Source of the DNA: Thermoplasmata archaeon
GTDB taxonomy: Archaea; Thermoplasmatota; Thermoplasmata; Thermoplasmatales; GCA-001856825
NCBI GenBank assembly: GCA_021792255.1
Contig: JAJYUZ010000001.1
Coordinates: forward strand, 434,135 to 498,134
Direction: 5' to 3'
Length of the DNA stretch: 64,000 nt
Notes under the pieces: generated by a model
What the model saw: the letters and a program-made list of their open reading frames with translations, nothing else
The model's database searches: none
What the model was told of the DNA's origin: nothing
In this document: in pieces, positions 207 to 22,262 of the stretch
How positions within the stretch are numbered: position 1 is the first letter of the stretch
Layout of the letters: every line of letters begins with the position of its first letter
Position numbers and translations under genes: made by a program

Positions 207-1607
207 TCAAACGTCAAAGATCTTTCCCCTGTTCAGCAGATTTTTTGGATCTATGGTAGTCTTAATGGACTTCATTAGTTCCATCGTTCCTGGTGAATTT
301 TTGAGTCTAAATTCTTCCTTGAGCAAGTCCTTTTTTTCCATTCCGATACCGTGTTCCGCGGATACACTTCCCGCGTGCTTTAGTGAAATCATCCCCAACT
401 CCTTTTGGAAACGTTCTACGCTCTCCACCTTTTCCTTGCTTGAAAGATCCACAAAGATGTTTGCGTGTATATTTCCGTCCCCTATGTGACCGAAAATTGC
501 GGCTCTGATTGCAAACGATTCCATGGATTCCTTTACTTCTTTCAGGGTAGCGGGCAGTTCTGAAGTTGGTACCACTATGTCGCTCAAAACGACACGCTCT
601 GAAGTCGATTTCCGTTGCGAAAGTATCGAAGAGTATAGCCCTTTTCTTGCCTCGTACATTTTCTGCATTTCACTTTCGTCAGTGGTTACCTTGACCGAAA
701 TTGGATGAAATTCTGATAGCATCGTTGCAACCTCTTTGAGTTGTCTTTCGAGAGATTCTTTTGTAGATGCGATGTCTAATAGAAGCATATAGTTGGTTTT
801 CTCGGGGAATTCTATCTCCTTTGTTAGCCTTATAGATTCGAGCGATATTCTGTCCATGAATTCTGCCACTTGTGGATTTATTCCCTTTCCCTTGATTGAT
901 GCAACCGCCTTTCCTGCGCTTTCTATGTCTTCAAAATAGGAGAGGACTCTTCCTACCTTTTCTGGCTTAGGCCAAATCTTTAAAATGGCCTTGGTCATAA
1001 TTCCGAGAGTCCCCTCGCTTCCAATCAGTAGGGCCGTGAGATCGTACCCAGCGCTTCTCTTGAGAGTCATTCCGCCCATCTGCACGATCTCTCCATTGGG
1101 CAGTACGGCCTCTATCCCAAGCACCCAGTCCTTGGTGACCCCATACATTGCTCCCCTGAGTCCTCCAGCGTTTGTTGACAGAGACCCGCCAACAGTGCAT
1201 ACTCTAGAGCTCGCAGGGTCTGGTGGATAGAAATGGTCATATTTTGACAAAAACTCGTTCAAGTCGTCTAACCTGACTCCCGACTCCACGAGTGCGTATC
1301 TGTCCTCAACCTTGACTTCCAAAATCTTGTTGAACTTCGAAAGACTGATTATTACTCCGTTGCCATTGAGAACTGATGACCCTGTCAGGGAAGAGCCACC
1401 GCCCCTTGCCGTCATCTGCACATCGTTTTCATAGCAGTACTTCATTATTTGAGACAGTTCTTGGACGCTTTCTGGGATGACAACAGCTAGAGGGAAGTCA
1501 CCTTGGTGCTCTGATGCATCTCTCGTGTAAGGAATCATTTCCTCTTTGGAAAAAAGAACGTTATTTCCTGAAATTCTCCTCAATCCTGAAGAAATATCCA
1601 TTCTCAT
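207..1607 (-). CDS. FAD-linked oxidoreductase, D-lactate dehydrogenase/GlcD family
   Basis: Motifs RGGGSSLTG, PPDPAS..CTVGG...NAGG, GYDL..L.IGSEGTLG, GHIGDGNIH, AEHGIG and C-terminal DP.NLLN.GKIF. D-lactate specificity is inferred from the murQ context. Confidence 0.85.
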   Translation of the reverse strand: MRMDISSGLRRISGNNVLFSKEEMIPYTRDASEHQGDFPLAVVIPESVQELSQIMKYCYENDVQMTARGGGSSLTGSSVLNGNGVIISLSKFNKILEVKVEDRYALVESGVRLDDLNEFLSKYDHFYPPDPASSRVCTVGGSLSTNAGGLRGAMYGVTKDWVLGIEAVLPNGEIVQMGGMTLKRSAGYDLTALLIGSEGTLGIMTKAILKIWPKPEKVGRVLSYFEDIESAGKAVASIKGKGINPQVAEFMDRISLESIRLTKEIEFPEKTNYMLLLDIASTKESLERQLKEVATMLSEFHPISVKVTTDESEMQKMYEARKGLYSSILSQRKSTSERVVLSDIVVPTSELPATLKEVKESMESFAIRAAIFGHIGDGNIHANIFVDLSSKEKVESVERFQKELGMISLKHAGSVSAEHGIGMEKKDLLKEEFRLKNSPGTMELMKSIKTTIDPKNLLNRGKIFDV

Positions 1608-1825
1608 CTGGAATTAAGATTAATTCAATAAGTTTACGATTATGAGTACCTCTGCGTTATTTATTTGACCCCATTAGATGGAAGAGGACTGAAATGGTCC
1701 ACTCATCCTCGAATTTTAGAATTGTTCAGATCTGACGTCGACATGAATTTGTTCTATGGCTCCGGAGGAATCAGGTTGATCTGACCGGTGGGCTAAGTAT
1801 ATTATTCAGGTCATCATATTTGCTT

Positions 1826-2965
1826 ATGAAGAAGATACCGGCGTTGCTAGTGACAGTTATATTGATTGTGTTGACCCTTTCCATAACAAATTTTGTTGCC
1901 CCTACGTATTCTTCTTTAGGTCACAGCGACAATGGAAATTATCCGGCCGTCTCTCAGGCATCTTACTATAATGGCACAAAGGCGGTGGACTATGGGCTTA
2001 TGGTTCACACCGATTACATTCACAAAGCGTACTATCCAGCAGGAATTAATCAGTCGATTCTTCAGAAGAACTTGGATTACTTTAATTCAGAGGACTGTGC
2101 CCATTTTGTCTCGGAATCTCTAATCGCGGGAGGACTCACAGTGTTGGCAAGCAATCCACCGGGGGACAATTTGACCAGCTACGATCAAGGATACTTTGGG
2201 AACGGGAGCTATGGAATTGTAGGAGTATACAGACTCGCTGATTGGCTTGCGGGATACGACCTGCCAATCTTCCCTAACAATGCTACGGACGAGCAAACTA
2301 TCGGATATTATCCAATCCCAGCGTCCTACGCTGGCAGCCCACAAGCGACCATGTTCTATGTTTTCAACTATACGATGTTCCCATCATATTTCCTTTCACC
2401 GGGTGACGTGGTCATGGATGGAGGCGCGGGAGGCGGTCACGCAATGCTATACATCGGAAACGGACAGGTTGTCCAAACGGACCCCGCTGCGATATGGAAT
2501 TATTCCCCTGCCGTGGACAATAATATCACTTTTTATGGTATATTGAGCTACTTTGGAAAGAATGTTTCTTCGCTGTACGTTCATATTCCTACTTTTGGTG
2601 AAAAGAGCGTAAGAATATCGGTACTGAACGACAATACGAACATAACAGGAAACCTCTCTGCAGTCAAGGCTGGAGAAAAACTGACGTTTATTGGCTCTTT
2701 CCCGAACGGAGTTGGTGAAGGGAATTACACCTATCAATGGATCGTTAACGGAAAATCAATGTCCAATAGTCAGTTCTTTAACCTCACTCCATCATCGGGA
2801 ACGTACAACATTGAAGTCGTATCCACCGGTTCAACTGGATCTGTAAATACGTCTATGTCATTTACGATTGGTGGTAGTTCAACAACGACAACCATTCTGG
2901 TTGTTGGATTGGTAATTGTGGTAGCAGCTGTCTCTGCAATATTCCTCTTCAAAAGGAGAAAATGA
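1826..2965 (+). CDS. Secreted, C-terminally membrane-anchored putative cell-wall amidase/peptidase (Amidase_6, NlpC/P60-CHAP superfamily) with an Ig/PKD-like domain
   Basis: MKK plus hydrophobic signal peptide. YNGTKAVDYG...DCAHFVSESLIAGG (Cys) and PGDVV...GHAMLYIG (His) match the Amidase_6 pattern. NYTYQWIVNG is PKD-like. Ser/Thr linker, TM helix, KRRK tail and about 14 N-x-S/T sequons. ATG 1826 is preferred over TTG 1820. Confidence 0.65.
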   Translation: MKKIPALLVTVILIVLTLSITNFVAPTYSSLGHSDNGNYPAVSQASYYNGTKAVDYGLMVHTDYIHKAYYPAGINQSILQKNLDYFNSEDCAHFVSESLIAGGLTVLASNPPGDNLTSYDQGYFGNGSYGIVGVYRLADWLAGYDLPIFPNNATDEQTIGYYPIPASYAGSPQATMFYVFNYTMFPSYFLSPGDVVMDGGAGGGHAMLYIGNGQVVQTDPAAIWNYSPAVDNNITFYGILSYFGKNVSSLYVHIPTFGEKSVRISVLNDNTNITGNLSAVKAGEKLTFIGSFPNGVGEGNYTYQWIVNGKSMSNSQFFNLTPSSGTYNIEVVSTGSTGSVNTSMSFTIGGSSTTTTILVVGLVIVVAAVSAIFLFKRRK

Positions 2966-3048
2966 GTTGGCGATTGGTGAAAGAGAACTTCGCGCGCATA
3001 ATACCTCTCGAATGAGGAAGGACAAGCTTACTCTAGATACGGTGAAGT

Positions 3049-4185
3049 ATGAAGACTAGCGAAACGTATGCATTCTCTACGATATATACCGGACAAGGGA
3101 TAGTCCACAGGGGATTCCTGAAGATAATCGACGGATCGATTGAGGAATTAGGTGAGGCTCCTCAGAATTCCATTGACCTCACGGATAGGATTGCAGTCCC
3201 CGGATTCATAGATATACACACTCATGGAATTAATGGAATCGACTCCTTCAACCTGACGAAGACAGAGCTCCTAGAGTGGAGCCAATTGTTACTAGAAAGG
3301 GGGACACTGGGATTTGTGCCGACTATCGTTTCTGCTCCTATTGAGAAGATAAAGGGTTTCTTGGGAGTCTTAAAGAGTTCTGAAGGATCTGAAAACGGAG
3401 CCGAAATAATTGGAGGAAGAATGGAAGGGCCCTTCATAAGTCATGTCAGGAAGGGAGCACACGATCCGTCTTTACTCAGAGTTCCTGCGAATACCAATTT
3501 TCAAGCAATCTTGTCGCAATTCAAAGGAATTCTTAAGATTGTAGACATTGCACCCGAACTGGACGGAGCTGGAGAGCTAATTTCAGAACTGGTCAGAGAA
3601 GACGTGGTGGTATCAATCGGTCACACGGATTGCGATTCCGTCACCGCGAAACGCGCATTTGCCTTGGGAGCGACGCTGGTGACGCACCTGTACAATGCGA
3701 TGCGACCATTTCATCATCGATTCCCCGGGGCAATTGACTTCGCATTGTTAGAGAAGAATGTTATGGCAGAGATTATCTGTGATCTCGTTCACGTATCTCC
3801 TGAAGCAATCAAACTCGCCATCAGTAATAAAGGAGCAAAAAGAATTGTGCTTATTACTGACTCGACGCCAGCAACTGGCAGGCCCGATGGAAAATACAAA
3901 CTAGGTCGACTTGATGTTCTAAAACAGGGAGATAAGTGCACGATAAGTGGGACAGAGACGCTGGCAGGAAGTGTACTCACCATGGATAGAGCAGTCAAGA
4001 ATCTAGTAGACTTAAAATATGATCTGGATGAGGTGGTCAAGATGTCTTCAAAAAATCCTGCTACCTTACTCGGAAGGAAAGACTTGGGCAGTATAAAGAA
4101 AGGGAAAAAGGCCAATATTACAATTCTGGACAAATCCCTAAGAGTAAGAGGTGTCGTTTCCAGGGGTGCGCTGATAGAGTTCTAG
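3049..4185 (+). CDS. nagA: N-acetylglucosamine-6-phosphate deacetylase
   Basis: PGFIDIHTHG, EGPF, KGAHD, APE, GHTD, THLYNAM, LITD and LAGS motifs. Confidence 0.93.
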   Translation: MKTSETYAFSTIYTGQGIVHRGFLKIIDGSIEELGEAPQNSIDLTDRIAVPGFIDIHTHGINGIDSFNLTKTELLEWSQLLLERGTLGFVPTIVSAPIEKIKGFLGVLKSSEGSENGAEIIGGRMEGPFISHVRKGAHDPSLLRVPANTNFQAILSQFKGILKIVDIAPELDGAGELISELVREDVVVSIGHTDCDSVTAKRAFALGATLVTHLYNAMRPFHHRFPGAIDFALLEKNVMAEIICDLVHVSPEAIKLAISNKGAKRIVLITDSTPATGRPDGKYKLGRLDVLKQGDKCTISGTETLAGSVLTMDRAVKNLVDLKYDLDEVVKMSSKNPATLLGRKDLGSIKKGKKANITILDKSLRVRGVVSRGALIEF

Positions 4186-4219
4186 TAATGTCTAATATTA
4201 TGTTGGCTATGCGATAATC

Positions 4220-5062
4220 ATGCCTGAAAGGGAAAGATTGCCAGACACCGAAAAGTCAAATCCTAGAACAACGAACATCCCTGAACTTTCAACCTATGAA
4301 ATCGTCAATCTGATTCATTCGGAGGACATCAGTGCATTTAGAGCCATTGACGGCACAACAAGACCCATTTCTAAAGTCATAGATTCTTGTTTCAAAAAAC
4401 TAATGATGGGTGGAAGGGTTGTGTATGTTGGATCTGGCACCAGTGGCAGAATCGGAGCACAAGACGCGATTGAAATGTGGCCAACGTATGGACTGGGTAA
4501 GGAGACATTTGATTATGTGATAGCAGGAGGTGAACGAGCCCTGACCAGGTCAATCGAAGGTGCAGAAGACTCAAGAGAAAGTGCGGTAGAAATGATCGAG
4601 AAGAAAAACATTACTGCTAACGACTGTGTAATAGGTATTACCGCATCTGGCCGAACGCCATTCGTGTTCGGAGCTTTGGAGAGCGCATCTAAAAAGGGAG
4701 CCTATACCGCTGCGATAGTGAATTCGAGAAATTCTCCATTGAAGGAAGTATCGAGAAATGTCATATTCCTGAACACGGGAGAAGAAGTCATCCAGGGATC
4801 AACGAGAATGAAAGCTGCGACCGCTCAAAAGATGGTTCTGAACATAATCAGCACATCTCTTGCAATCAAACTGGGACGAACTTACGGAAATCAAATGATT
4901 CATATGAAGGCGTCTTACAATGCAAAGCTAAGAAACAGGGCAGTCAGAATTCTAGCACAAAGGTTCGATATTTCTGTGATCGAAGCAGAGAAGAGACTCA
5001 AATCGCACAAGTACAACTTGAGCGAAACAGTAAAAGAGCTGGAACAGGTCAAGAGAGATTGA
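4220..5062 (+). CDS. murQ: N-acetylmuramic acid 6-phosphate etherase
   Basis: TE..NPRT, GSGTSGRIG, DAIEMWPTYG (cf. DASECPPTFG), EGAED, GITASGRTPFV and GSTRMKA.TAQKMVLN. Both catalytic Glu positions appear retained. Confidence 0.93.
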   Translation: MPERERLPDTEKSNPRTTNIPELSTYEIVNLIHSEDISAFRAIDGTTRPISKVIDSCFKKLMMGGRVVYVGSGTSGRIGAQDAIEMWPTYGLGKETFDYVIAGGERALTRSIEGAEDSRESAVEMIEKKNITANDCVIGITASGRTPFVFGALESASKKGAYTAAIVNSRNSPLKEVSRNVIFLNTGEEVIQGSTRMKAATAQKMVLNIISTSLAIKLGRTYGNQMIHMKASYNAKLRNRAVRILAQRFDISVIEAEKRLKSHKYNLSETVKELEQVKRD

Positions 5063-6131
5063 GGAATACCGTGTTGTGAAAGAGCCTCCTCAATCTTAAA
5101 TTCTTAATATTCTCCCTCGTAGGATATACCCTGTTCGTCAGGAGAATACACGCCAACTTCATGTCAGAATTAATGCATATAGAGGTCCCCGTAAAACCAG
5201 TATGGCCGAAAGTACCGTATGGAGAAAATTCTCCCATGAAACCGTTGAAATCAAATGACTCGCTCTTTACTTCCGGCACTGGCACCTTCGTCATCCAACC
5301 CAGTCCAAACATTCCACCAAGATGTGCATTCTTATTCCTCGTTGCCAGTTCCCAAACACTCCTCTGTAGAAGCTCTCCATTCGCGAGAGAATGAATTATC
5401 CTGTTTATCTCTGAAGCGGTCGAAAATAGGCCCGCGTGTCCAGCGACCCCTCCGAGATAGTAAGACTTTTCATCGTGCACTTTCCCCCACACCAAACCTC
5501 TTTCTTCTGTAACTTCGGTAGGAGCTATTCTTTCCTTGCTCTGATGGGGGTTAAATCCCGAGTTCTTGAGTCCGAGTTTTTCCGCTACTTCGTGTTTCCA
5601 AATCGTGTCAAGGGGCTTGTTGTGCAGTTCTTCCAGTACGAACCCGAGAAGTATGTAATTCAGGTCGCTGTAAAGCTCCTTCTTGTTCACAGTCGCCTTT
5701 TCTGCTTCTACTTCGATTCCAGAAAGATATGCCCTTCTGTCTCTTCCCGCGGTGTAGAGAGGTTTGTCTGGTATGAGCCCTGAAGTATGAGTCATCAGAT
5801 TTTCTATGGTAAATTTCCCCAGATTCGGGAATTCTCCAAACAACCCGATATCAGCTATCGAATCCTTTAAGGATATCTTCCCTTTTGCGAGAAGCCTGCA
5901 CATCAGCAGGGACGTCACCAGGGGTTTCGTTAGCGATGCTAGATCGAATATCGTGTCTTTGTTGTAGCTGAACCCCAGTTCGTCGATTTGTCCAAATGCG
6001 TTTTGATAAAGGACCTTTCCATCGAGAGAAACGAGGGCGCTCAAACCCCTTGTGGAGGAAGGTACATTGTCGTGCAGCACCGAGTCGATTTCAGTGGAAA
6101 GCTTCTCTTCATCAATGGTACTCATATTCAA
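5049..6131 (-). CDS. Serine hydrolase of the beta-lactamase fold, AmiE(YbbE)/YfeW-like; probable muropeptide N-acetylmuramoyl-L-alanine amidase
   Basis: FDLASLTK (SxxK), YSDLNY, VHDE...LGGVAGHAGLFST and FGHTGFTGTS, typical of AmiE/YfeW-like proteins found next to murQ. No signal peptide. Confidence 0.75.
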   Translation of the reverse strand: MNMSTIDEEKLSTEIDSVLHDNVPSSTRGLSALVSLDGKVLYQNAFGQIDELGFSYNKDTIFDLASLTKPLVTSLLMCRLLAKGKISLKDSIADIGLFGEFPNLGKFTIENLMTHTSGLIPDKPLYTAGRDRRAYLSGIEVEAEKATVNKKELYSDLNYILLGFVLEELHNKPLDTIWKHEVAEKLGLKNSGFNPHQSKERIAPTEVTEERGLVWGKVHDEKSYYLGGVAGHAGLFSTASEINRIIHSLANGELLQRSVWELATRNKNAHLGGMFGLGWMTKVPVPEVKSESFDFNGFMGEFSPYGTFGHTGFTGTSICINSDMKLACILLTNRVYPTRENIKNLRLRRLFHNTVFLNLS

Positions 6132-6178
6132 CTATCTTCTATTGGTATTATAATCATTCTGATTTCAGCTCCTTCGAA

Positions 6179-7078
6179 TCACCTTGGTTTTAATAGATCC
6201 TTTTTCATTATTGTGAATCTTCTGGTCACCTTGAAACCAAATCTTGAATAGAGGTGAGTGGCCCGTTCGCTTGTCCACAAAAAGTAAGCGTGCTTCAGAC
6301 CCAGCCCCTTCATGTTGTTCAACAATTGGGCTAGGATCAGTGCCCCTATCCCCTTTGATCTCTCTTTGTCCTCGACGCCGAATGGACCAAACCTTTCCCC
6401 CGGGGAGTACCACATGTCGCCCCTTCCAGCAGAAAACATTCCATAGCCAACTATTCTCCTTCCGATTCTTGCAATCACAACTTGATCCTTGATTCCCATT
6501 TCAGCGACTCCCTTTGCACGATAGTAACAGTCGGAATTGAAGTTCTTTTCCACGAACGAAAGGAACTTGGCCTCTTCACCTTGTCTGAGGGAGGAAACTT
6601 CAAACTCACTCGGCTCTATTTCTAAGTGCTGCATCTTTCCAATTTCTGCTTCCATGGAAATAGCCTCTTCGTGTGGGACGAAACCCAGCCTACCCAGTTC
6701 CCTTGCCAGCGAACGATACCTAACGGCGTCCACTCCTGGCATCAAGTAATTTGGTACCACATTAGAGTAGTATACCGTTTTCACTTTTCTATTGAGGAAT
6801 TCTTCAAATTGCAAGTCCATTAATTTTCCAAAATTCTTCCTATCCTTGAATCCGCTCCCGAAGAACCACCCCTTGTCGCTCTCGGAGGATTCGTAGTAGA
6901 ATTTCTTCTTCCTAGTTACAGCGAGCGAGAATGCATCTTCCAGTGTAATCGGTAAAATGGGGTTCAAGTATTCGTCCTGAAGAAAGCTTCTTCGGATTTC
7001 CCGAGTCGTCACCGGATCGAGGCTATAAAATGAATTCCACTTTTTTTGAATTTCTTCTGCAGAATCATTCTTACTCAT
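6179..7078 (-). CDS. GNAT N-acetyltransferase (tandem-GNAT-like, possibly GlmA-like glucosaminide N-acetyltransferase)
   Basis: C-terminal GNAT with FGPFGV...RSKGIG acetyl-CoA motif and LYSRFGF. Internal PNYLMPGVD. Translationally coupled to the ABC ATPase gene (7071-7078 overlap). Confidence 0.7.
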   Translation of the reverse strand: MSKNDSAEEIQKKWNSFYSLDPVTTREIRRSFLQDEYLNPILPITLEDAFSLAVTRKKKFYYESSESDKGWFFGSGFKDRKNFGKLMDLQFEEFLNRKVKTVYYSNVVPNYLMPGVDAVRYRSLARELGRLGFVPHEEAISMEAEIGKMQHLEIEPSEFEVSSLRQGEEAKFLSFVEKNFNSDCYYRAKGVAEMGIKDQVVIARIGRRIVGYGMFSAGRGDMWYSPGERFGPFGVEDKERSKGIGALILAQLLNNMKGLGLKHAYFLWTSERATHLYSRFGFKVTRRFTIMKKDLLKPR

Positions 7079-8051
7079 AGAGATAGCACGCCACTAGGTG
7101 GTCTTTTTCAACTTCTCTGAACTTAGGCCTCTCCTTCCTGCAGTTGTCCATTACGAATGGACACTTGTTCGCGTAACTGCATTCATTTTTCCCCTCGTTG
7201 ACGTATTCAGATATCTGTCCCTTTGACTCGTCCAAATTCCACTTCTTCTTGGGATCGGGGACAGGTATTGAATCTATCAGGGACTTAGTGTATGGATGCA
7301 TGGGGTTGTTTATGATCCTGTCAGATTTGGCGACTTCCACCAGCTGACCGAGATGCATGACCGCAATTCTATCCGAGACATATTGAGTGACTGCAATGTC
7401 GTGTGAGATGAACATCATTGATTTGCCAAACTTGCGTTTCAGATCCAGAAGAATATTTAGGATGTCGGCTCTCAGTGAAACATCAAGCATAGAAACTGGC
7501 TCATCGGCGATGATGAAGTCCGGATTGTTGATTACCGCCCTGGCTATACCTATTCTTTGCCTTTGACCGCCACTCAGTTGGTTCGGGAATTTATTCAGGA
7601 ACTGTTCCGCTGGTGTCAGGCCAACCATTTCTATGGTCTCGATCGCCTTATTCAGAACTTCTTCCTCTTTCAGTTCCTTGTGAAACACTCTGAGAGGCGT
7701 AACTATTGATTTATAGACTGAGATCACCGGGTTTAGAGAACTGTATGGGTCCTGGAAAATCATCTGTGTCTTTTCCCTGAAACCGAACAGCTGGCGCCCT
7801 GTGTATTTCATTATATTGTTACCATTGAAAATTATTTGTCCGGAATCGACGTCCATTAACTTCAACAGCGCAAGTCCTAGAGTCGTCTTTCCACTGCCGC
7901 TCTCCCCTATGAGTCCGAAAATTTCGTGCTCTTTGATCTGCAGTTTGACCTGGTCCAGGGCTCGTGTTGTCCTGCTCTCTCTCCTTATGATCCCTCTCTT
8001 GTTGATGAAATCCTTCGTGAGTTCATTAGTTTCGATCGTACTACTTTCCAT
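7071..8051 (-). CDS. Oligopeptide/dipeptide-family ABC transporter ATPase (OppF/DppF)
   Basis: GESGSGKT, QDPYSSLNP, LSGGQRQR, ADEP, HPYT and C-terminal Cys motif. Start moved to ATG 8051, after GGTGA and the upstream stop. Confidence 0.92.
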   Translation of the reverse strand: MESSTIETNELTKDFINKRGIIRRESRTTRALDQVKLQIKEHEIFGLIGESGSGKTTLGLALLKLMDVDSGQIIFNGNNIMKYTGRQLFGFREKTQMIFQDPYSSLNPVISVYKSIVTPLRVFHKELKEEEVLNKAIETIEMVGLTPAEQFLNKFPNQLSGGQRQRIGIARAVINNPDFIIADEPVSMLDVSLRADILNILLDLKRKFGKSMMFISHDIAVTQYVSDRIAVMHLGQLVEVAKSDRIINNPMHPYTKSLIDSIPVPDPKKKWNLDESKGQISEYVNEGKNECSYANKCPFVMDNCRKERPKFREVEKDHLVACYLYE

Positions 8052-8055
8052 CAGA

Positions 8056-14385: not shown

Positions 14386-14539
14386 CTCGTAGATTTCTCC
14401 AACTCTTAAGTGTTGCTAAATTATATACTGCTCCAGTAATCTGTCAGCGACCAGTCTAATAGGCTCAATTTCAGAATGCCGATAATAATTTCATTCTCTG
14501 GTTATGCAAAGAATTTTAGACCCAGTGGAATTGAGTTGG

Positions 14540-15556
14540 GTGAATATTGTATCAGTAGACGGCGGGGCAACGAAAACTATAGCCGTTGTCTACAACGAAG
14601 AAAAAAAATTGCTGGGAGCAGGAGTTTCTGGTCCATCGAACTACAGAAACGTCGGTGTTCGGATGTTTAAGATCAACCTTTTGAGCGCAATCGAAAAGGC
14701 AGTAGCTTCATCTGGAGCATCCGATATAGGGGAGTACACTTTTGCGCTAGCTGGAATGAAGGATTCCAAGAAGTCCTCAGATAAGATCATGGGGATTCTT
14801 AACGCGATCATTCCTAGCTCTAATATTTCGTTCTTCAATGATGGGGAGGCGGGTTTCTTCTCAAGGTTCCCTGAAGGGAGAGGAATTGTAGTGGCTCCAG
14901 GTACCGGAATGGTATCATACGGACGCATTGGAGAAAAGATCGAAAGATCGTCGGGTTGGGGTTGGTTTCTGGACGACGAAGGAAGTGCCTTTTCGATCGG
15001 TAAGCGGGCACTCCAGGAGGCAGTAAAATTAATGGACAAGAGGGACGAAAGAGTGTCGATTCTGCCTGATTTTGTGAGACAATATTACGGACTATCTGCG
15101 GATAGAGACATAATCAACATAATACACAGAAGAGTGTTCGATGTCAGGGGGATAGCTCTACTGTCTCGATACGTTTCAAAATTTGCAGTGGAGGGGGATC
15201 CCGTCTCTTTGGGAATAATGAAAGAAGCAGCGGAGGAGACATCACGAGCTGCAGTTTCACTCTACAAGAGACTGGGAGAGCCCAAAGATATCGCGATTAG
15301 TGGGTATGGCGGGGTTCTGAGAGCAGGCGAGTGGTACTGGGACACGATCAAGAAGAACATCGAAAACAAAATAGGAAAATCTCAGTTCAGACCTCCAATT
15401 TCTGGATACGAAGCGGTTCTAGGTTCCATAGTACTGAAATACAAAATCCTTGGAGTGAACGTCGACGAGGCTATGGTTACTGACTTTAGGAAGCAATTAT
15501 CGGTACTGATTGATAGAATGAGCGTTGAGGACAAGAAAGAGTTTCTTCTGCTTTGA
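14540..15556 (+). CDS. BadF/BadG/BcrA/BcrD-family amino-sugar kinase (GlcNAc/MurNAc kinase, MurK-like)
   Basis: VDGGATKT, GPSNY, ND, APGTG and GWG..LDDEGSAF.IG. The in-frame GTG at 14540 is the likely start (ORF track gives 14504). Confidence 0.8.
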   Translation: MNIVSVDGGATKTIAVVYNEEKKLLGAGVSGPSNYRNVGVRMFKINLLSAIEKAVASSGASDIGEYTFALAGMKDSKKSSDKIMGILNAIIPSSNISFFNDGEAGFFSRFPEGRGIVVAPGTGMVSYGRIGEKIERSSGWGWFLDDEGSAFSIGKRALQEAVKLMDKRDERVSILPDFVRQYYGLSADRDIINIIHRRVFDVRGIALLSRYVSKFAVEGDPVSLGIMKEAAEETSRAAVSLYKRLGEPKDIAISGYGGVLRAGEWYWDTIKKNIENKIGKSQFRPPISGYEAVLGSIVLKYKILGVNVDEAMVTDFRKQLSVLIDRMSVEDKKEFLLL

Positions 15557-15589
15557 ATGATGACAATTATTCTGAACTCGGACAGAAAT

Positions 15590-17014
15590 CTAGAGGTTTG
15601 CTCCCTCTATTTCCCCTGGATCATAAAATCCGAGTATCGAGTATAAAGAAGCCAGAACACTTTCGAGCTTTTCGCTCATCGCACTGATGTAACCAACCTG
15701 TTCGTTAAGAAGACTGGAATCTACTGGTATTCCTGTCGAAACAAAACAGCATTTATTGCTATTCGAAAGTTCGTTTATCATCTTCCATGTTTCACTCAAA
15801 TGAAGATTCTTTCCTATGAAGATCACATTTGCGTTTTCTAACTTCAGTTCGTCGTTGAGATAGCGTATCTCGTTCTCTATCTTCAGATCGTTAAGCTTCT
15901 TGCCTAATTGTTGATACATAGTAAAGGGCCAGGAGCTTTCGTCCCCCCTATTCCGGAGGGGCACGATAAAGACGCGTTTCTCCAGATCAAGTTTCTTCTT
16001 CCTGATCCACTTTATTGCATTAACTGATATCCAATTCATAACTTCAGGTGGAGAGGATGTGTGACCGGACGGATGGATGTTCATTCTCAGGAGCCTTTCC
16101 TCTTTTTGTTTCGTGTCCACCTCGGCTCTCTTTTCAAGATGTTCAAATATTTCTAGTGCCAGATCAGGGTCTGCGCATTCGAGAACGTCTGCGCCTCCGG
16201 AAAAAGACGATTTGGTGAACTCTGCAACTGAAAAATTTGCAGATATTGCTTTCATATCCAGAGAATCCGTAATTATCAGATTTTGGAATCCCAGATCCTT
16301 CCTGAGATACGACATTATTTTATTAGACATCGATGCTGGGAAATCTGGGTCTAGGGCTTCGTATTTGATGTGGGACATCATTATACTTTTCACATCTTTC
16401 TTTATTGCACTCTTGAATGGAGTGATGCTGTTCATTATTGAATCTGCCCCTCTTCCGTCAACTGGCAGTTTTAGATGTGAATCCTCACGCACGTAACCGT
16501 GTCCTGGAAAATGTTTCGCAGTAGCAGCAACTCCAGCAGCCTGTATTCCTTCTATATAGCCCTCGCCCAACCTAGAAACTACTTCTGGGTTTGCCCCGAA
16601 CGACCTCTCCATCACTATTGGGTTGTCTGAATTGGAAAATGTGTCGAGGACAGGGGCTAGGTTCCAATATATTCCGACCTCCCTAAGCTGATGTCCGGTG
16701 ATGTTTCCAGCGTACCTCGCAAAGACCTGGCTTCCAAGGACCCCGAGAGCATAATTGCTTGGTAGGTAATCTAGGTCCCTTATTCTGACAACATTCCCTC
16801 CTTCTTGATCTATGGCGATTATCGGTCTTTGAATTTTTAACTCCTTGTCGTAGAAAGAGAAGATAGTTCTAATCAAATTTCTCAAAGAGTCAATACCGTT
16901 GAAATCCCTTCCCAGGAGCACAATTGATCCTGGCTTTATCGTATTCAGAACCTTCTTCGTTTTCTCCATGTTGGTTCCGTCGATGCCGGGCTGAAGGAAT
17001 AGTCCTGATCTCAT
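15590..17014 (-). CDS. nagZ: Beta-N-acetylglucosaminidase, GH3 (NagZ)
   Basis: IDQEGG.V.R, NLAPVLD, RSFG, KHFPGHG....DSH (NagZ signature), MMSH and ITDSL.M nucleophile. No signal peptide. Confidence 0.9.
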   Translation of the reverse strand: MRSGLFLQPGIDGTNMEKTKKVLNTIKPGSIVLLGRDFNGIDSLRNLIRTIFSFYDKELKIQRPIIAIDQEGGNVVRIRDLDYLPSNYALGVLGSQVFARYAGNITGHQLREVGIYWNLAPVLDTFSNSDNPIVMERSFGANPEVVSRLGEGYIEGIQAAGVAATAKHFPGHGYVREDSHLKLPVDGRGADSIMNSITPFKSAIKKDVKSIMMSHIKYEALDPDFPASMSNKIMSYLRKDLGFQNLIITDSLDMKAISANFSVAEFTKSSFSGGADVLECADPDLALEIFEHLEKRAEVDTKQKEERLLRMNIHPSGHTSSPPEVMNWISVNAIKWIRKKKLDLEKRVFIVPLRNRGDESSWPFTMYQQLGKKLNDLKIENEIRYLNDELKLENANVIFIGKNLHLSETWKMINELSNSNKCCFVSTGIPVDSSLLNEQVGYISAMSEKLESVLASLYSILGFYDPGEIEGANL

Positions 17015-17153
17015 CGCTAATTATCCATTTCCTGTATATAATTTGATGGAGAGCTTTGAGTATCTTTGGTTAATGCCTTTCCCAGTGTCCTATCGATAGT
17101 TCACTTCCTTCCCTGAAAGACTGGGTTTAATTATTTGTAAGGCATGCTTTGCC

Positions 17154-18218
17154 ATGATATCTTCAGTCGAGTTCAAGAGAATCGAAATTGCAATGAAGAA
17201 GCCTTTTGTTATAGCAATCGGAAGCACTTCAGTCTATGAAGGATTCATCGTGAAGGTGAAGACTGACGACGGATACGAGGGAATAGGAGAGGCTGTGCCG
17301 ACGCCACATATCATGGGCGATACCATGGGTTCGGTCGAGAACGAGCTTGGAATATTCCAAAAGAATATAGTTGGAATGGAGACCAGCCCGGAAAGGATCA
17401 ATGAGAAGATGTTCTCTCTCGCAAGAAATTCAAAGGCGAGCAGAGCGGCAGTAGATATGGCCATTTGGGACATTATAGGAAAAAAAGCGAAACTTCCAGT
17501 TCATTCCATCCTTGGAAATTACAGGAGCGAATTTGAGACAAGTTACACGGTCGATCTAGTAGAGCCAGAAGTTGCAGGAAGGGAAGCCGCAGAACTGCTG
17601 AGGGATGGAGTCGTTGTTTTCAAGATTAAGCTCGGATCTGGATTGGAAAAGGACTATGCTAGGGTAGAAAGGGTTAGGAAAATAGTGGGTGATGATAAGG
17701 AGGTATATGTGGACTTCAATCAGTCATACTCTGCAAAGAAAGCAATAGCACTATCAGAAAAGATTTCAAAATTCAACATAGAGTTTCTTGAACAACCCGT
17801 GCCCGCAAACGATGTGAGAGCGCTGAGGTTTGTCAGGGAGCACACGTCTATCCCCGTGATGGCAGATGAGGCTGTCATGTCACCTCAGGATGCTGCCACA
17901 ATCATACAAAACGAAGCAGCCGATATGATAAACCTGAAGCTCATGAAGTCAGGGGGCATCACAGATGGGTTGACCATCATCAAGACTTCACAATCGTTCA
18001 GAATTCCTGTGATGATTGGTTGCATGGTGGAGACCAGACTGGCAAATACTGCGGGCTTGCACCTGGCTCTTTCTCAACCAGCCGTCAAATATACCGATTT
18101 AGATGGGTTCTCTAGCTTAAAGGAAGATATAGTCAACGGCGGAATCTCCTTCAAGAATGGAAAGAATTCGTTGGGAGATGGACCGGGATTGGGAGTCAAT
18201 CTCAAAAAAGGTTATTGA
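17154..18218 (+). CDS. Dipeptide epimerase (L-Ala-D/L-Glu epimerase-like), enolase superfamily MLE subgroup
   Basis: KIK, DFNQ, EQP, ADE, NLKLMKSGG, GCM.E and the DLD (DxD) motif diagnostic of dipeptide epimerases. Confidence 0.85.
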   Translation: MISSVEFKRIEIAMKKPFVIAIGSTSVYEGFIVKVKTDDGYEGIGEAVPTPHIMGDTMGSVENELGIFQKNIVGMETSPERINEKMFSLARNSKASRAAVDMAIWDIIGKKAKLPVHSILGNYRSEFETSYTVDLVEPEVAGREAAELLRDGVVVFKIKLGSGLEKDYARVERVRKIVGDDKEVYVDFNQSYSAKKAIALSEKISKFNIEFLEQPVPANDVRALRFVREHTSIPVMADEAVMSPQDAATIIQNEAADMINLKLMKSGGITDGLTIIKTSQSFRIPVMIGCMVETRLANTAGLHLALSQPAVKYTDLDGFSSLKEDIVNGGISFKNGKNSLGDGPGLGVNLKKGY

Positions 18219-18389
18219 AGGAATTTTTCTGGATTGATATCCATTATGATACGTTCCGAGTTCACTCTAGACTGTAGAAAGACCTTGGATCATTCGTTCA
18301 AATCGCCCCATAGCTTTATCGCTAAGTCGGATGCTGCGAAGAAAGATTTGATGAAAAGAAATATTAAAGCTCCTTGGATTTGACTGAGA

Positions 18390-19481
18390 ATGAACGAATC
18401 TTTATCATTTATCTTTAGGGACAAGAAGGGAAGAGACATCCATTCCCAATCTTCAAAACTGCCAATGATACCTGCCTCAAACATGAAGATAGTGACTGGA
18501 CTCATCAGTTCTTTTTTGCTTGGAGAAAATTTTGAAATCTTGACTGAATTCAGAATCTCGGGAGACAAACTCATAGTTTCAGGAGGCCCCTCTCCGTTAC
18601 TGCGGACACCAGAGGTAGAAACGATACGAGAGCAACTTGGGAAATATAATGTGACTAGGGTAATGTTCAACGGAAGCTTTGACTGGAATGAATACGCTCC
18701 GAAATGGGCCCCTGAAGACCAAAATGAATGTTATCAGTCGAGAATTTCGTCCTTCTCGCTCAATGAAAATTGTATTCCTAGAACGAAAAAAATTCGTGTG
18801 ACGAAGACATATGACCCGCATTCGGAAAGAGGGGTCTCAGACATCCGACCATATGACACTCTTTCGAAGAAATTGCTTCGCGATTCGGCTGATAATATTT
18901 TCCCTTCTTTTGAATTTACAACCTTCTCCAAAGGAAAACTCGTTTATGTTCACAAAGAAAAGATAGGAGACATACTCGAACATCTGGAACCTATTAGCTG
19001 CAACTTTTCGGCCGATAGCTTATACAAGTTCATTCACCATTTCCGAACCGGACTGCCAGGAAGCTGGAAGGGAGGTTCTGAAACCATAATGGAAGAGATT
19101 GGAAAGCTAGGTCTGTCAGAGCCGGATCTATTTGTCGTGGATGGATCGGGTCTTTCATCTCTCAACAAACTTACTCCCTCCTTTTTGTCCAGACTGATGA
19201 GATTTGCTGTTGAACACAATGGTGGCAAATTCTTGGAATATCTGCCATCTCCAGGAACTGGAACTTTAGAGAAGAGACTCGAGGAATTCAGGGACTATGG
19301 AATCAAGGCGAAGACCGGATCTCTTACCGGAGTGGCGACCCTCAGTGGATACATAAAGAAACTCGACATCACTTTTAGTATCATGTTGAACAACACAGGC
19401 AAGAAAGGCAAGGCTGCCAGCGACGTTGTAGATGAAACTCTCGGGGAAGGGATCGATAGGATAGAGAAATTACGGAAATGA
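18390..19481 (+). CDS. dacB: D-alanyl-D-alanine carboxypeptidase/endopeptidase, peptidase S13 (DacB/PBP4-like)
   Basis: PASNMK (SxxK), SCNF (SxN), DGSGLS and KTGSL...LSGY (KTG). Compact, with no signal peptide. Confidence 0.85.
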   Translation: MNESLSFIFRDKKGRDIHSQSSKLPMIPASNMKIVTGLISSFLLGENFEILTEFRISGDKLIVSGGPSPLLRTPEVETIREQLGKYNVTRVMFNGSFDWNEYAPKWAPEDQNECYQSRISSFSLNENCIPRTKKIRVTKTYDPHSERGVSDIRPYDTLSKKLLRDSADNIFPSFEFTTFSKGKLVYVHKEKIGDILEHLEPISCNFSADSLYKFIHHFRTGLPGSWKGGSETIMEEIGKLGLSEPDLFVVDGSGLSSLNKLTPSFLSRLMRFAVEHNGGKFLEYLPSPGTGTLEKRLEEFRDYGIKAKTGSLTGVATLSGYIKKLDITFSIMLNNTGKKGKAASDVVDETLGEGIDRIEKLRK

Positions 19482-19576
19482 GCACCGAAAGAAACATTGC
19501 TTTGGAAGAGCACTATGCTTCCTCCTAGCGGGACTTGAACGTTCAAAAGTTGTCTCCTTTAAAAAATCGACATCCT

Positions 19577-20845
19577 TTATTGACCAAGTGGAAGGGCGAA
19601 AGTGTTGAGCATATCATCGAGGCTCTCTTTCCTTTTGATGATAATCTCTTCGGACCCATCTAGTAGGAGTTCAACGGGTCTCTTCAAGAGGTTGTAATTA
19701 GACGCCATCGAGGATACGTAAGCGCCACAATTGAGAAAGGCAATCGTGTCTCCTTCTTCAATCTCTGGGAGCGACACTCCTTTGAACAATATATCAGTGT
19801 TCTCGCATACCTGCCCTCCAATATTACACTTCACAATATGAGGATCTGTGGCCTTATTCGCAACCAGAATGGGATGAGTCGCTCCGTACAGAGGTGCCCT
19901 TATCAGCGAATTCATACCGACATCTGTTCCAATGTACAGTCCGTCATAGCTCTTCACATTCGCGACCCTGCCCAAGAGAACTCCTGTGTTTGCAATTATA
20001 TAGCGACCAGGCTCTATAACGAGTCTACAATTCTTGAAGAAACCTCTCGATCGACTGTCCTCGAAGTTCTCTAAGATGTATTTGGCTACGGATCTTATAT
20101 CAAGTTCCTCCTCATCTTTCTTGTACGGAACACCCAAGCCACCTCCAATATCCAAAAATTCGAATTCTATGTCATTATCTTGGGCGATCCTTTCTGCAAT
20201 GGAGAAGAACATTCTGGACGATTGCCTGAAGAACGACGGGTCAAGAACGTTCGATCCAGTCATCATGTGTATGCCAAATCTCTTACATCCGTGTGCCTTT
20301 GCGGTCTTGTAAGCATTATTAGCGGCCTCTGGGGGCATACCGAACTTGCTGCCTTTGCCGCCCGTGGTTATTCCTTTAAACTCTCCCTTGCCTATTCCTG
20401 GATTCACTCTGAAAGACACCACGTTTGGAAGATTGTCCTTTATCAGTTCCATTTGGCCGACATCGTCAAAATTTAATATCACACCTTCAGCCGATATTTT
20501 CGCTAACTCATCCTTCGATAGGTTATTGGGGGTAGCAATTATCCTATCTGCGCTGGCTCCGACCCTTAGTGCCAACAGTACTTCGTTCAGGTTCGCTGCG
20601 TCAAAACCAACTCCCATTTCTCTCAAGATTGAGAGAAGGGCTGGATTGAAATTCGACTTGATGGAAAAAATGACAGACAGGTAGTCTGCATTGAAAGCAT
20701 CTGAGAGTTTCTTTACATTTTCCTGAATCTTTCTCTTAGAATACACAATGAGTGGGGTACCATACTTCCTACTCAGTTCTACCAGATTCCTGTCGTCAAG
20801 AAATAGATTATTGTTCTTTACATCAAAGTACCTTAGATAATCCAC
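19577..20845 (-). CDS. lysA: Diaminopimelate decarboxylase
   Basis: YGTPL.VY, FSIKSN (PLP Lys), RVNPG, SKFG, DIGGG, EPGRY, GQVCENTD and GAY...MASNYN. Confidence 0.88.
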   Translation of the reverse strand: MDYLRYFDVKNNNLFLDDRNLVELSRKYGTPLIVYSKRKIQENVKKLSDAFNADYLSVIFSIKSNFNPALLSILREMGVGFDAANLNEVLLALRVGASADRIIATPNNLSKDELAKISAEGVILNFDDVGQMELIKDNLPNVVSFRVNPGIGKGEFKGITTGGKGSKFGMPPEAANNAYKTAKAHGCKRFGIHMMTGSNVLDPSFFRQSSRMFFSIAERIAQDNDIEFEFLDIGGGLGVPYKKDEEELDIRSVAKYILENFEDSRSRGFFKNCRLVIEPGRYIIANTGVLLGRVANVKSYDGLYIGTDVGMNSLIRAPLYGATHPILVANKATDPHIVKCNIGGQVCENTDILFKGVSLPEIEEGDTIAFLNCGAYVSSMASNYNLLKRPVELLLDGSEEIIIKRKESLDDMLNTFALPLGQ

Positions 20846-20987
20846 GTCCTTCTATAATTTATGGATATTTTAGCTCTTTGACTGTCATTGGATCCTCTCA
20901 GAAGATTTCACGCTTCGAACTCTGATAAACACAGAAACGTTTCTTCTGCTAGCAAACGTGATTGCATAGGGAGCAAGCAATATTCCA

Positions 20988-22262
20988 TCAACGTTTCTTC
21001 CAACCGTGACTGAGGATTTGCCAATCTCCAGATTCCACGTTCTCAAGAAATCCTTTGGTCCACGAATATTCTGGGTGTAGGGAAAGAAAAAGAGAACTGT
21101 CGAATCTGTCAGAACACGGTTTCCCCCACTTAACTTGAGACTCTCCCCTAAGTGCACCTTCCCCTGAGACTATCTTACCATCTATTGATCCTACTGGATA
21201 AAATGGTCCCTTCTTGTCAAACGCGTCGAGATTGGGTTCGATCTCTCTGTGGCCACAGATAGAGTTCTTACCAGGATTCATTTTTTGCAGGAAGTGGTCG
21301 TGGTGATCTGAAAGTATTTTCTTGTAGTCGAGAGTATCTTTTCTTCCATTCCTCAACAGTTCTTCTAGTCGATACAACCTGCTGTTGTCGGAGTTGATCG
21401 AACCGTCGTAAGATATGCTAGATTCTTTTCTCACTTCTTCAAATTGGACATAGTTACTGGAGGGAAAAAAGCCGTTGTTTTTCTTCAAGAACACGTGGTT
21501 GTAAGTGGCGATCTCAAGCAATCCTATCTCCTTATTCTTGCCATCTCCGATAAGGTAGTCGTTCGCGTATCCTCCGGTGTTCCCATCAATGATGTACTTA
21601 GCAAATTCGTCTATGGAATTGGAATTCTGAATAGCTAACCTGAGTCTCTGAAATATCGGAGTTCCCTTTACGTTATAGGTATCTATCCCGTCCAGGGTCG
21701 TCTCGCTTGCCATGATGCCCTTTTCGTTGTAGTAAAAGTCTGTCCCGCTGAAAACCAGACCGGGAGCAGTCTGCATTACGAAACCTAGCCCTTCATCTGG
21801 AGTTATCTTCAGCATCAGATTGAAATTGACGCCAGTGAAGTACCTCCACCACGTCGTGTGAGCGAGCATCACATCACTGTCTGTAGTGTAGTCTCCTGTT
21901 GCCACGAAGGAAGTGCACGATCCGTGGTTTCTAGCCTTACCGACCGACAGGAAACTTTCTGCATCAAAGGTGACATTTAACGCGAAAATGTCATCAAAAT
22001 TTATTTGGTCGGGTGCGACCGAGTTGTACCCTTTAACTATTCCTTCCATTTCCTCCTTAATGTCTCCATCCAGGGAGGAGAGAAAATTGTCTTTCGAGAA
22101 CTCTACAAGCCACTGCCAGCTCTTAGAAAAATCGTGCGTGAAGATAAAGCTGAAGGTATCGATCGTCCTTCTAATTTCTTTGCTAAAATTCTGGCCTATT
22201 TCCCTGCCTATTTCAGCTGGTGTACCTGCTACCTCTTTGAAAATGAACCTATCTCGTTCCAT
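20988..22262 (-). CDS. Ntn-hydrolase, peptidase C45/phospholipase-B-like family
   Basis: N-terminal G.P.EIG...G, autoprocessing Cys site HGSCTSFVATG, LAHTTW, SGTDFY, SETT and NTGGYANDYLIGD. Confidence 0.7.
   Translation of the reverse strand: MERDRFIFKEVAGTPAEIGREIGQNFSKEIRRTIDTFSFIFTHDFSKSWQWLVEFSKDNFLSSLDGDIKEEMEGIVKGYNSVAPDQINFDDIFALNVTFDAESFLSVGKARNHGSCTSFVATGDYTTDSDVMLAHTTWWRYFTGVNFNLMLKITPDEGLGFVMQTAPGLVFSGTDFYYNEKGIMASETTLDGIDTYNVKGTPIFQRLRLAIQNSNSIDEFAKYIIDGNTGGYANDYLIGDGKNKEIGLLEIATYNHVFLKKNNGFFPSSNYVQFEEVRKESSISYDGSINSDNSRLYRLEELLRNGRKDTLDYKKILSDHHDHFLQKMNPGKNSICGHREIEPNLDAFDKKGPFYPVGSIDGKIVSGEGALRGESQVKWGKPCSDRFDSSLFLSLHPEYSWTKGFLENVESGDWQILSHGWKKR

Follow-up and report, generated by a model that had tools for sequence, protein, structure and literature searches.

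What a wall-less archaeon does with genes whose relatives serve bacteria in the turnover of peptidoglycan (PG) is the question raised by the locus described here. The locus lies in a stretch of 64,000 nucleotides, hereafter the window, which corresponds to positions 434135-498134 of contig C3 (498,134 bp) of a genome assembled into 11 contigs (1.587 Mb, 93.55% complete, 0.46% contaminated). Between window positions 207 and 22262 there is a cluster composed mostly of bacterial-type enzyme families, apparently long resident in this archaeal lineage. This cluster is probably, with a likelihood that can be put at roughly three in four, a system for the uptake and the catabolism or salvage of muropeptides, a function assigned on the basis of homology and gene context. 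A preliminary description of this DNA had counted 17 genes in the interval; 18 large open reading frames (ORFs) were counted in the present analysis, and the families that had been named were recognised at their positions by Pfam and NCBIfam profiles. Examination of the 20 kb upstream showed that the cluster runs past the window edge with two further members, a GlcF-like and a YkfC-like gene.

The glycan side of the proposed pathway centres on MurQ, the etherase acting on the 6-phosphate of N-acetylmuramic acid (MurNAc) (4220-5062, plus strand), which scores 311.2 with NF003915 against a cut-off of 168, aligns over residues 10-263 with the solved MurQ structures PDB 4lzj, 1nri and 4s12 (E 3e-54), and conserves the GTSGR, EGAED and ASGRTP blocks. 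Beside it lies NagA, the 6-phosphate deacetylase of N-acetylglucosamine (GlcNAc) (3049-4185, plus strand; TIGR00221, 282.7 against a cut-off of 225.65). The NamZ homologue, an exo-beta-N-acetylmuramidase of glycoside hydrolase family GH171 (13171-14385, minus strand), matches PF07075 and PF20732, with 225.7 and 170.6 bits for the N and C domains, as well as two solved GH171-type proteins, PDB 4k05 (2e-57) and 4jja. The NagZ-type GH3 beta-N-acetylglucosaminidase (15590-17014, minus strand; PF00933, 205 bits) falls just below the cut-off of NF003740 (187 against 207); its 22 PDB matches at E<=1e-25 are without exception GH3 hexosaminidases, Bacillus subtilis YbbD among them, and it carries a KHFPGHG...DSH motif at residues 167-180. 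A sugar kinase of the BadF/BcrAD family, described here as MurK-like (14504-15556, plus strand; PF01869, 117 bits), is recognised at the family level, with a score of 68 against an NCBIfam cut-off of 370, and its PDB matches include the archaeal hexokinase 2e2n (2e-30) and 8zo3, an 'N-acetylmuramic acid/N-acetylglucosamine kinase' (8e-28). An AmiE/PBP4B-like serine hydrolase with a beta-lactamase fold (5049-6131, minus strand; PF00144, 154 bits) contains the motifs SLTK66 and HTG310; its best NCBIfam model, PBP4B, is matched below the cut-off (124.8 against 385) and its nearest solved structures are esterases, so that its assignment as a candidate MurNAc-L-Ala amidase follows from family and gene context.

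A second group of genes would act on the stem peptide. A dipeptide epimerase of the L-Ala-D/L-Glu type, belonging to the enolase superfamily (17154-18218, plus strand; PF13378 and PF02746), has PDB 3jva, 'Dipeptide epimerase' (8e-66), and 1jpm, 'L-Ala-D/L-Glu epimerase' (1.5e-62), among its matches, and scores 223 with NCBIfam, below the cut-off of 500. It is followed by an S13/PBP4-family DD-peptidase of 363 amino acids (aa) (18390-19481, plus strand; PF02113; TIGR00666, 109.5 against 107.8), which keeps the SNMK30, SLN257 and KTG308 motifs, has neither a transmembrane (TM) nor a signal segment, and is short beside the about 477 aa of PBP4. Next to the GlcF-like gene, just upstream of the window, a 228-aa protein combines SH3_16 (PF18348) with NlpC/P60 (PF00877, 70.9 bits), the architecture of B. 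subtilis YkfC, a gamma-D-glutamyl-L-diamino-acid endopeptidase. Finally LysA, the decarboxylase of meso-diaminopimelate (mDAP) (19577-20845, minus strand), is matched by TIGR01048 with 342.3 against a cut-off of 297.9; the simplest reading is that it would decarboxylate imported mDAP to lysine. Active-site motifs are intact in MurQ, the S13 peptidase, the AmiE-like protein, NagZ and LysA.

For import, the cluster encodes OppF, OppD, OppC and OppB (7071-10924, minus strand), that is, the two ATPases and two permeases of an ATP-binding cassette (ABC) importer of the Opp/Dpp family, recognised by the Pfam combinations ABC_tran with oligo_HPY and BPD_transp_1 with OppC_N. An OppA-type family-5 solute-binding protein (11204-13048, plus strand; PF00496, 175.7 bits) presents TM-like segments at residues 13 and 562, as N- and C-terminal membrane anchors, and is a candidate muropeptide receptor. 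Localisation was judged by a simple Kyte-Doolittle hydropathy scan. Among the cluster proteins scanned, hydrophobic terminal segments occur only in the OppA-type protein and in a surface protein, P0001, which is discussed below; NamZ, NagZ and the AmiE-like protein show no N-terminal hydrophobic segment. As the glycosidases and peptidases lack signal or TM segments, the anatomy of the system fits the uptake of soluble fragments and not an attack on cells. The D-lactate expected from MurQ could be handled by a GlcD-family oxidase linked to flavin adenine dinucleotide (207-1607, minus strand; PF01565 and PF02913), which scores 404.7 bits with TIGR00387, below the cut-off of 567.9, and is a candidate D-lactate dehydrogenase, its substrate being deduced from this context. 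Its predicted partner is the GlcF-like Fe-S/CCG subunit, whose 5' part occupies window positions 1-217 (minus strand): the gene starts at about position 217, overlaps the GlcD stop and continues upstream to C3:433101, and the product has N-terminal CxxCxxCxxxCP motifs, a CCG domain in Pfam and weak NCBIfam matches to TfrB, LdhH and GlcF, being thus GlcF/LutA-like.

Taken as a pathway, soluble fragments shed or leaked by neighbouring bacteria would be captured by the anchored OppA-type protein, perhaps after trimming outside the cell by P0001, and imported by the Opp-type ABC system. In the cytoplasm NagZ would take GlcNAc off the chain end, the AmiE-like hydrolase would detach the stem peptide and NamZ would release the terminal MurNAc, whereupon the MurK-like kinase would generate MurNAc-6P and GlcNAc-6P, and MurQ would convert MurNAc-6P into GlcNAc-6P and D-lactate, the latter to be oxidised by the GlcD/GlcF-like pair. 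NagA would then yield glucosamine-6-phosphate (GlcN-6P), which a GlmD/NagB-II-like protein encoded elsewhere may convert into fructose-6P. On the peptide side, the cytoplasmic S13 DD-peptidase may open cross-links or trim D-Ala, the YkfC-like endopeptidase would cut the gamma-D-Glu-mDAP bond, the epimerase would turn L-Ala-D-Glu into L-Ala-L-Glu, and LysA would turn mDAP into L-lysine.

This gene set recurs in other archaea. Within the order, NamZ (PF07075) was detected in 31 and MurQ (NF003915, E<=1e-30) in 32 of 168 species genomes; 28 have both, three NamZ only, four MurQ only and 133 neither, the seven discordant genomes being metagenome-assembled genomes that are 56-93% complete, and where both occur they are mostly found on a single contig, with a few kb between them. 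In wider samples NamZ was found in 13 of 401 genomes evenly sampled from the class, three of them outside the order and all of one family, and in 10 of 401 genomes sampled from the phylum, again with three outside the order, all of one other family. Up to 40 kb around NamZ were then compared in 12 other genomes using tblastn with the window proteins (E<=1e-15, coverage >=60%). MurQ, NagA and the AmiE-like gene were present in all 12 of these loci, NagZ and the kinase in 10 each, the epimerase in nine, the S13 and YkfC-like peptidases in eight each, P0001 in seven, and GlcD, the CCG subunit, GNAT and OppB/C in six each, the CCG homologue standing beside GlcD; LysA adjoins the cluster genes in five, and C45 occurs in two. 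At a looser threshold an S13-like gene (26-27% identity) was also seen in G206 and G240. Gene order is shuffled between the genomes, two of which are single-contig (1.94 and 2.23 Mb), and the proteins share between about 30% and 82% identity; a set that recurs through such shuffling and divergence points to long-standing selection for a functional unit and not to contamination. The idea of an integrated murein-directed pathway in archaea, along with which a profile search for co-located genes had been suggested, finds support in these 12 genomes and in the 28 that combine NamZ with MurQ.

Whether the host could instead be turning over a wall of its own was addressed through the functions missing from the genome, all such searches referring to an assembly that is 93.55% complete. 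No MurB was found, and only one Mur-ligase-type gene per genome is present in the five genomes checked (this one and four relatives), in a family that also matches in two wall-less control archaea. With no MurB and a single Mur-ligase-type gene, recycling of an endogenous murein is unlikely, as had been supposed from the start.

Several observations weigh against the muropeptide reading, or at least narrow it. GH25, SLT and Amidase_2, families of lytic wall hydrolases, were not found in the genome, and neither were an S66 LD-carboxypeptidase (PF02016), an alanine racemase or a classical NagB. These gaps leave the mDAP-D-Ala bond and D-Ala without an assigned enzyme, and no provision is seen for lysing intact sacculi. 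The term 'near-complete' that had been applied to the catabolism is accordingly fair for soluble muropeptides, with gaps, and does not extend further. The only candidate for the deamination of GlcN-6P is a 322-aa double-SIS protein on contig C6, which resembles GlmS-isomerase, GlmD and NagB-II and falls below all cut-offs; a SIS match on contig C9, considered as NagB, was rejected as a GmhA-type isomerase. Two members have no assigned role in the pathway, namely the GNAT acetyltransferase (6179-7078, minus strand; PF13508 and PF00583) and the C45-family autoproteolytic hydrolase/acyltransferase of the N-terminal nucleophile type (20988-22262, minus strand; NF040521, 123.2 against a cut-off of 85), the latter being a peripheral member. 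The nearest solved structures of the OppA-type protein (HbpA and NikA) do not point to a ligand, the kinase is about equally close to the archaeal hexokinase and to MurK, and NagZ, the AmiE-like protein, the epimerase, the kinase and GlcD all remain below curated NCBIfam cut-offs. Within the genus, NamZ was found in only one of 17 other species, which makes the trait an accessory one; besides, the 12 related loci were picked by NamZ, so that its presence there is by construction, and the relatives are not independent samples.

Scores below equivalog cut-offs would also be expected if the cluster acted on something other than murein, a non-murein glycopeptide or an ether-linked amino sugar, for instance a glycan from the surface of archaea or fungi. 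Binding proteins of the Opp family accept many different ligands, and the authors of a study on MupG assumed that the archaeal homologues act on something else (PMC6262408). MurQ, a GH171 enzyme, a YkfC-like endopeptidase, an epimerase, a three-motif DD-peptidase and an mDAP decarboxylase together, however, fit no other known polymer easily, the combination has been kept through shuffling across two orders, and no MurB for the synthesis of endogenous MurNAc was found in the genome; a different substrate is therefore considered improbable.

Since the families involved are typical of bacteria, the possibility of an assembly or binning artefact, with a bacterial fragment joined onto an archaeal contig, was also considered; among the control genomes NamZ matches only B. 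subtilis and B. thetaiotaomicron, and MurQ exceeds its cut-off only in six bacteria. The cluster nevertheless sits 434 kb into the 498-kb contig with archaeal genes on both sides, and the same contig carries, at C3:143653, the archaea-specific large subunit of PolD (DP2). The window itself also encodes geranylgeranylglyceryl phosphate synthase, a UbiA-family prenyltransferase, RpoD, ribosomal proteins S13 and S4, SRP54, an aNOP56-like protein and an archaeal-type 2-oxoacid:ferredoxin oxidoreductase, so that the description of the contig as clearly archaeal holds. The GC content of the window is flat (0.42-0.50), and when 153 segments of the genome are ranked by their tetranucleotide distance to the genome mean, three 10-kb segments over the cluster fall at the 12th-24th percentile; a composition so typical of the genome suggests that the DNA is not recently foreign. 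At least 0.90 of sampled words of the stretch were present in nine metagenome runs from mine drainage, mine tailings and sediment (three studies), six of which may be the source of the assembly itself. The continuity check by coverage that had been called for gave even depth over cluster and flank when contigs of four runs were aligned to 15001-35000, a comparison made with contigs only, none of which covers the whole 20 kb, and in which the gaps left by runs X7-X9 carry no weight; one contig of 14,350 bases bridges 15001-22886, from C45 into the neighbouring gene for GTP-dependent phosphoenolpyruvate carboxykinase (PEPCK), and comes from a run that may be the source of the assembly. The relative G002 has this cluster too, flanked by PEPCK as here, it occurs in the two single-contig genomes, and the named members of the P0001 family are almost all archaeal. 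With this position, composition and depth, and with 12 other archaeal genomes bearing the genes, a chimeric join to a bacterial contig is hardly credible.

Two observations from the same alignments may be recorded. Runs X4 and X8 contain, as a minority at depth 8-9 compared with about 50, a contig form that joins window positions 19619 and 23981 by 40 other letters; it may belong to a strain variant or to a relative in which the region around LysA, C45 and PEPCK is arranged differently. At the tRNA-Leu(GAG) gene (26984-27068, minus strand) the depth of metagenome contigs is about tenfold higher because this sequence is common to many organisms.

The host is a wall-less, Thermoplasmata-like archaeon of acid mine habitats. 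This placement rests on PolD, on the proteasome alpha subunit, whose best PDB match is the 1pma group (the Thermoplasma acidophilum proteasome), and on the organism words in the source names of the P0001 homologues; no mcrA was found in the genome and no 16S rRNA gene in the assembly. As to how the cluster arrived, the cluster-free genus-mate G012 has syntenic flanks that lie about 12 kb apart, compared with about 37 kb here, the 37-kb block with the wall-fragment cluster and an alpha-glucan cluster being replaced by the 12 kb; this synteny places the cluster in a variable region and suggests that it was gained or lost within the genus. The alpha-glucan block that shares this region, located in the 20 kb upstream of the window (C3:414135-434134), with a GH31 enzyme, a TrmB regulator, a MalK-type sugar ABC system and an alpha-amylase, is separate from the wall-fragment cluster.

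The window NamZ is 47-53% identical to many proteins of 430-450 aa, of which the three named ones are bacterial (Aminicenantia, Acidobacteriota and 'bacterium'), and a search of genome contigs yielded two bacterial loci only, with 34-35% identity and an uninformative context. In a quick tree of 56 rows (15 archaeal, the two named bacterial loci and 39 of 119 listed matches), the window protein is placed together with five further archaeal NamZ and three proteins without a label (support 89), and this group adjoins a clade of 38 rows in which all the named bacterial ones are found; the sample was drawn from the best 120 matches of the window protein and is biased to the nearest, so that the number of transfers is beyond its resolution. 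Another archaeal NamZ type, which is shorter, makes up a separate clade. Two NamZ paralogues a few kb apart were seen in G077, G080, G083 and G090 (for example at G077:C1:1615419 and 1620616), one of 400-430 aa, whose N domain carries an insert and which is the type found in the window, and one of 365-377 aa, in separate clades.

The physiological purpose of the system may be viewed differently. According to an alternative that overlaps with muropeptide uptake and catabolism and differs from it only in that purpose, the host would be an auxotroph that salvages lysine from mDAP, amino sugars and amino acids, and would not draw energy from the fragments. LysA is single-copy in the genome and, among five same-genus genomes at least 90% complete, was found only in the cluster-bearing G002 and not in the cluster-free G010, G011, G012 and G015; it stands again among cluster genes in G029, G077, G090 and G107. 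Being restricted to cluster-bearing genus-mates, it belongs with the cluster and not with core lysine biosynthesis, which, along with a marginal DapB_N match (25.9 bits against a cut-off of 25.6, in a 353-aa frame), would suit an auxotroph, as would the small genome (1.59 Mb) and the lack of a classical NagB, with which GlcN-6P might go to glycoconjugates instead. The cluster-free genus-mates are, however, also without LysA and so obtain lysine otherwise. Moreover the D-lactate dehydrogenase candidate formed by the GlcD/GlcF-like pair belongs to the cluster in half of the 12 loci, the GlmD/NagB-II-like gene is available elsewhere in the genome, and an L-lysine 6-transaminase (49173-50507, minus strand; TIGR03251, 637 against a cut-off of 520.8) is encoded 27 kb downstream and could process the lysine made by LysA further; it was found in none of the 12 related loci and for that reason is not counted as a member. 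These three features indicate carbon and energy use too, and salvage as the only purpose appears rather unlikely.

P0001 (1820-2965, plus strand), which may act outside the cell, is a membrane-anchored surface protein of an archaea-only family, recognised by hydropathy and not by any family match. The hydropathy scan shows hydrophobic N- and C-terminal segments that anchor it at both ends, and Cys91, His205 and Asp219 are conserved without exception across 30 sequences. Neither Pfam nor NCBIfam returned a significant match, and a protein-atlas search gave nothing usable; there are weak Pfam signals for NlpC/P60 (E 0.025) and Amidase_6 (E 0.042), and a profile search of the PDB picked up RipA/RipB around the His motif with E about 0.03, while hhalign gave a probability of only 7.8% against the alignment of YkfC-like sequences. 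A full-length AlphaFold2 model (predicted local distance difference test, pLDDT, 80.2) was matched by Foldseek, in PDB and BFVD, only in its Ig/PKD part; a domain-only model built from seven sequences was discarded (pLDDT 39.1). In a library of 1.84 billion representatives the catalytic-domain profile retrieved one full-length P0001 cluster with fragments and five weak full-length matches (E 1.7e-5 to 6.5e-4), three of which carry Pfam NlpC/P60 (one together with LRAT), the matched stretch lying inside the domain in two. The family counts 87 members in a collection of 5.8 billion proteins, all named 'hypothetical' and none with a Pfam domain, and the named organisms among the homologues are archaeal (Thermoplasmata and Thermoplasmataceae, with one Bathyarchaeia and one Methanomassiliicoccales label). 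Within the order, 21 of 168 genomes encode P0001; MurQ accompanies it in 19, often on the same contig within about 5-26 kb. It may be counted with the cluster and considered a candidate for a divergent hydrolase of the NlpC/P60 type; of the earlier label 'surface Cys hydrolase', the surface location agrees with the membrane anchors, and the hydrolase part has for it the weak NlpC/P60 signals and no significant family match.

A surface-exposed protein with invariant Cys and His, weakly linked to NlpC/P60 wall endopeptidases and tightly tied to the cluster, could be thought of as a lytic weapon for antagonism or predation on living bacteria. P0001 is nevertheless anchored at both ends and not secreted, all other hydrolases of the cluster look cytoplasmic, GH25, SLT and Amidase_2 were not found in the genome, and the cluster-bearing genomes of the genus g16 and G029 have no match to this P0001 query, so that a role in attack is very improbable. 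As only the binding protein and P0001 look extracellular, scavenging is favoured over the lysis of intact walls. Of the two ways of life that had been envisaged for an archaeon feeding on bacterial walls, scavenger and antagonist, the first thus stands for soluble fragments, and the second finds no support in hydrolases that lack signal and TM segments.

The system proposed here, a muropeptide uptake and catabolism pathway in an archaeon, can be set beside known ones. The murQ-murR-murP-amiE-nagZ-namZ operon of B. subtilis brings together the same four families that are clustered here (MurQ, an AmiE-type hydrolase of the beta-lactamase fold, GH3 NagZ and GH171 NamZ) and follows the same logic: sequential exo-digestion to GlcNAc, MurNAc and peptide, and conversion of MurNAc-6P into GlcNAc-6P and D-lactate (PMC8054146). 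The same source describes NagZ, AmiE and NamZ of B. subtilis as secreted and jointly digesting PG outside the cell, whereas the three counterparts in the window lack signal peptides (PMC8054146). The archaeal cluster differs further in that its host has no murein to recycle, in an Opp-type ABC uptake with a separate kinase that takes the place of the phosphotransferase system (PTS) MurP, and in holding in the same cluster a stem-peptide branch (S13, YkfC-like, epimerase and LysA) together with the D-lactate dehydrogenase candidate. A search confined to the cluster, that is, to the 207-22262 ORFs and the two upstream members, returned no match to the PTS (MurP) or to the RpiR/MurR family.

Clostridium acetobutylicum and Tannerella forsythia employ a MurK-dependent MurNAc/GlcNAc kinase route, which shares with the present locus a BadF/BcrAD kinase clustered with MurQ and the uptake of unphosphorylated sugars or fragments; the kinase found here, in contrast, is equally similar to archaeal hexokinase 2e2n. 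Tannerella is reported to have two NamZ paralogue types, as do some of the archaeal genomes, and scavenges MurNAc for its own wall, whereas no wall is built here. In B. subtilis, ykfABCD serves the catabolism of stem peptides, YkfB being an L-Ala-D/L-Glu epimerase and YkfC a gamma-D-Glu-L-diamino acid endopeptidase. The epimerase of the cluster matches the YkfB structure (1jpm) and the upstream 228-aa protein has a YkfC-type architecture; a YkfA-type S66 LD-carboxypeptidase, however, was not found in the genome, and what the cluster has in its stead is a short cytoplasmic S13 DD-peptidase together with LysA. Escherichia coli uses cytoplasmic NagZ, AmpD (an Amidase_2 protein) and LdcA, and recycles the products into its own wall. 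Its muropeptide import through Opp/MppA and AmpG (PMC10622912) resembles the archaeal system in that fragments are taken up and then disassembled in the cytoplasm with the involvement of an Opp-family ABC importer. The amidase family is another one here, no Amidase_2 having been found in this genome. In Aciduliprofundum, Metcalf et al. in 2014 reportedly described a horizontally acquired GH25 lysozyme, a single secreted lytic enzyme used as a weapon; both cases place bacterial murein-directed genes in a Thermoplasmata-related archaeon, but here about 20 genes for import and catabolism are concerned and GH25 was not found.

A large part of the carbon and nitrogen of microbial necromass resides in PG, whose known consumers and recyclers are bacteria and some eukaryotes. 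In the searchable full-text literature no description of MurQ, of NamZ/GH171 or of a PG catabolic cluster in archaea was found, although a mention in subscription journals or in the tables of genome papers is possible; within that limit, the supposition that no integrated archaeal pathway had been known agrees with what was found. The NamZ family is described as occurring mainly in Bacteroidetes and less often in Firmicutes, Actinobacteria and gamma-proteobacteria (PMC8054146), and MupG-like proteins of archaea have been noted, a different function being assumed on the grounds that archaea have no PG (PMC6262408). What would be new in the present case, its functional steps being predicted from sequence, is the re-purposing of bacterial cell-wall recycling in a domain without such a wall. 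Were this so, a domain of life would be added to the PG consumers, and a nutritional link would exist between acidophilic bacteria and co-living Thermoplasmata-type archaea. It would also be a case of a multi-gene bacterial pathway turned, after transfer, from recycling of its owner's wall to feeding on the walls of others, with enzymes changing compartment and the transporter replaced. A further-reaching proposal, possible although at odds somewhat short of even, is that a subset of wall-less, acidophilic Thermoplasmata-type archaea are dedicated murein consumers. They would have the first complete archaeal pathway by which muropeptides end up as fructose-6P, pyruvate, glutamate, alanine and lysine, put together from bacterial genes in the distant past, in which P0001 would make the first cut on wall material at acid pH and enzymes that are secreted in bacteria would now be cytoplasmic behind the Opp importer. 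On that view archaea would be, in acid mine ecosystems, a direct sink for the carbon and nitrogen of PG, its D-amino acids and mDAP included. These ideas offer a functional hypothesis for a surface-protein family that has no annotation and has been met almost exclusively in archaea, and are testable, given the two single-contig cluster-bearing relatives and a defined substrate for every step.

Some features of the surroundings complete the description. The next gene beyond the cluster, that of PEPCK (22409-24319), is not counted as a member; its homologue in G012 (C1:326565-328434) is split into two overlapping frames of 301 and 357 aa, which could reflect a frameshift, a pseudogene or a sequencing error. 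Further downstream, a 693-aa ORF (33402-35483, plus strand) has no Pfam or NCBIfam match, and a fused 3-hexulose-6-phosphate synthase and RraA-like protein is encoded on the opposite strand at 35371-36663 (minus strand; NF005442, 589 bits against a cut-off of 593). At 42803-44987 (plus strand) an enolase of the MenC/N-succinylamino-acid-racemase type (TIGR01928, 357.9 against 200.65) is followed by an M20 amidohydrolase (TIGR01891, 293 against 153.75), a pair that presumably resembles the racemase and L-deacylase route from D- to L-amino acids and that could handle D-Ala or D-Glu from wall peptides. Elsewhere in the genome, ARAGORN called a tRNA-SeC gene at C9:21881-21970.

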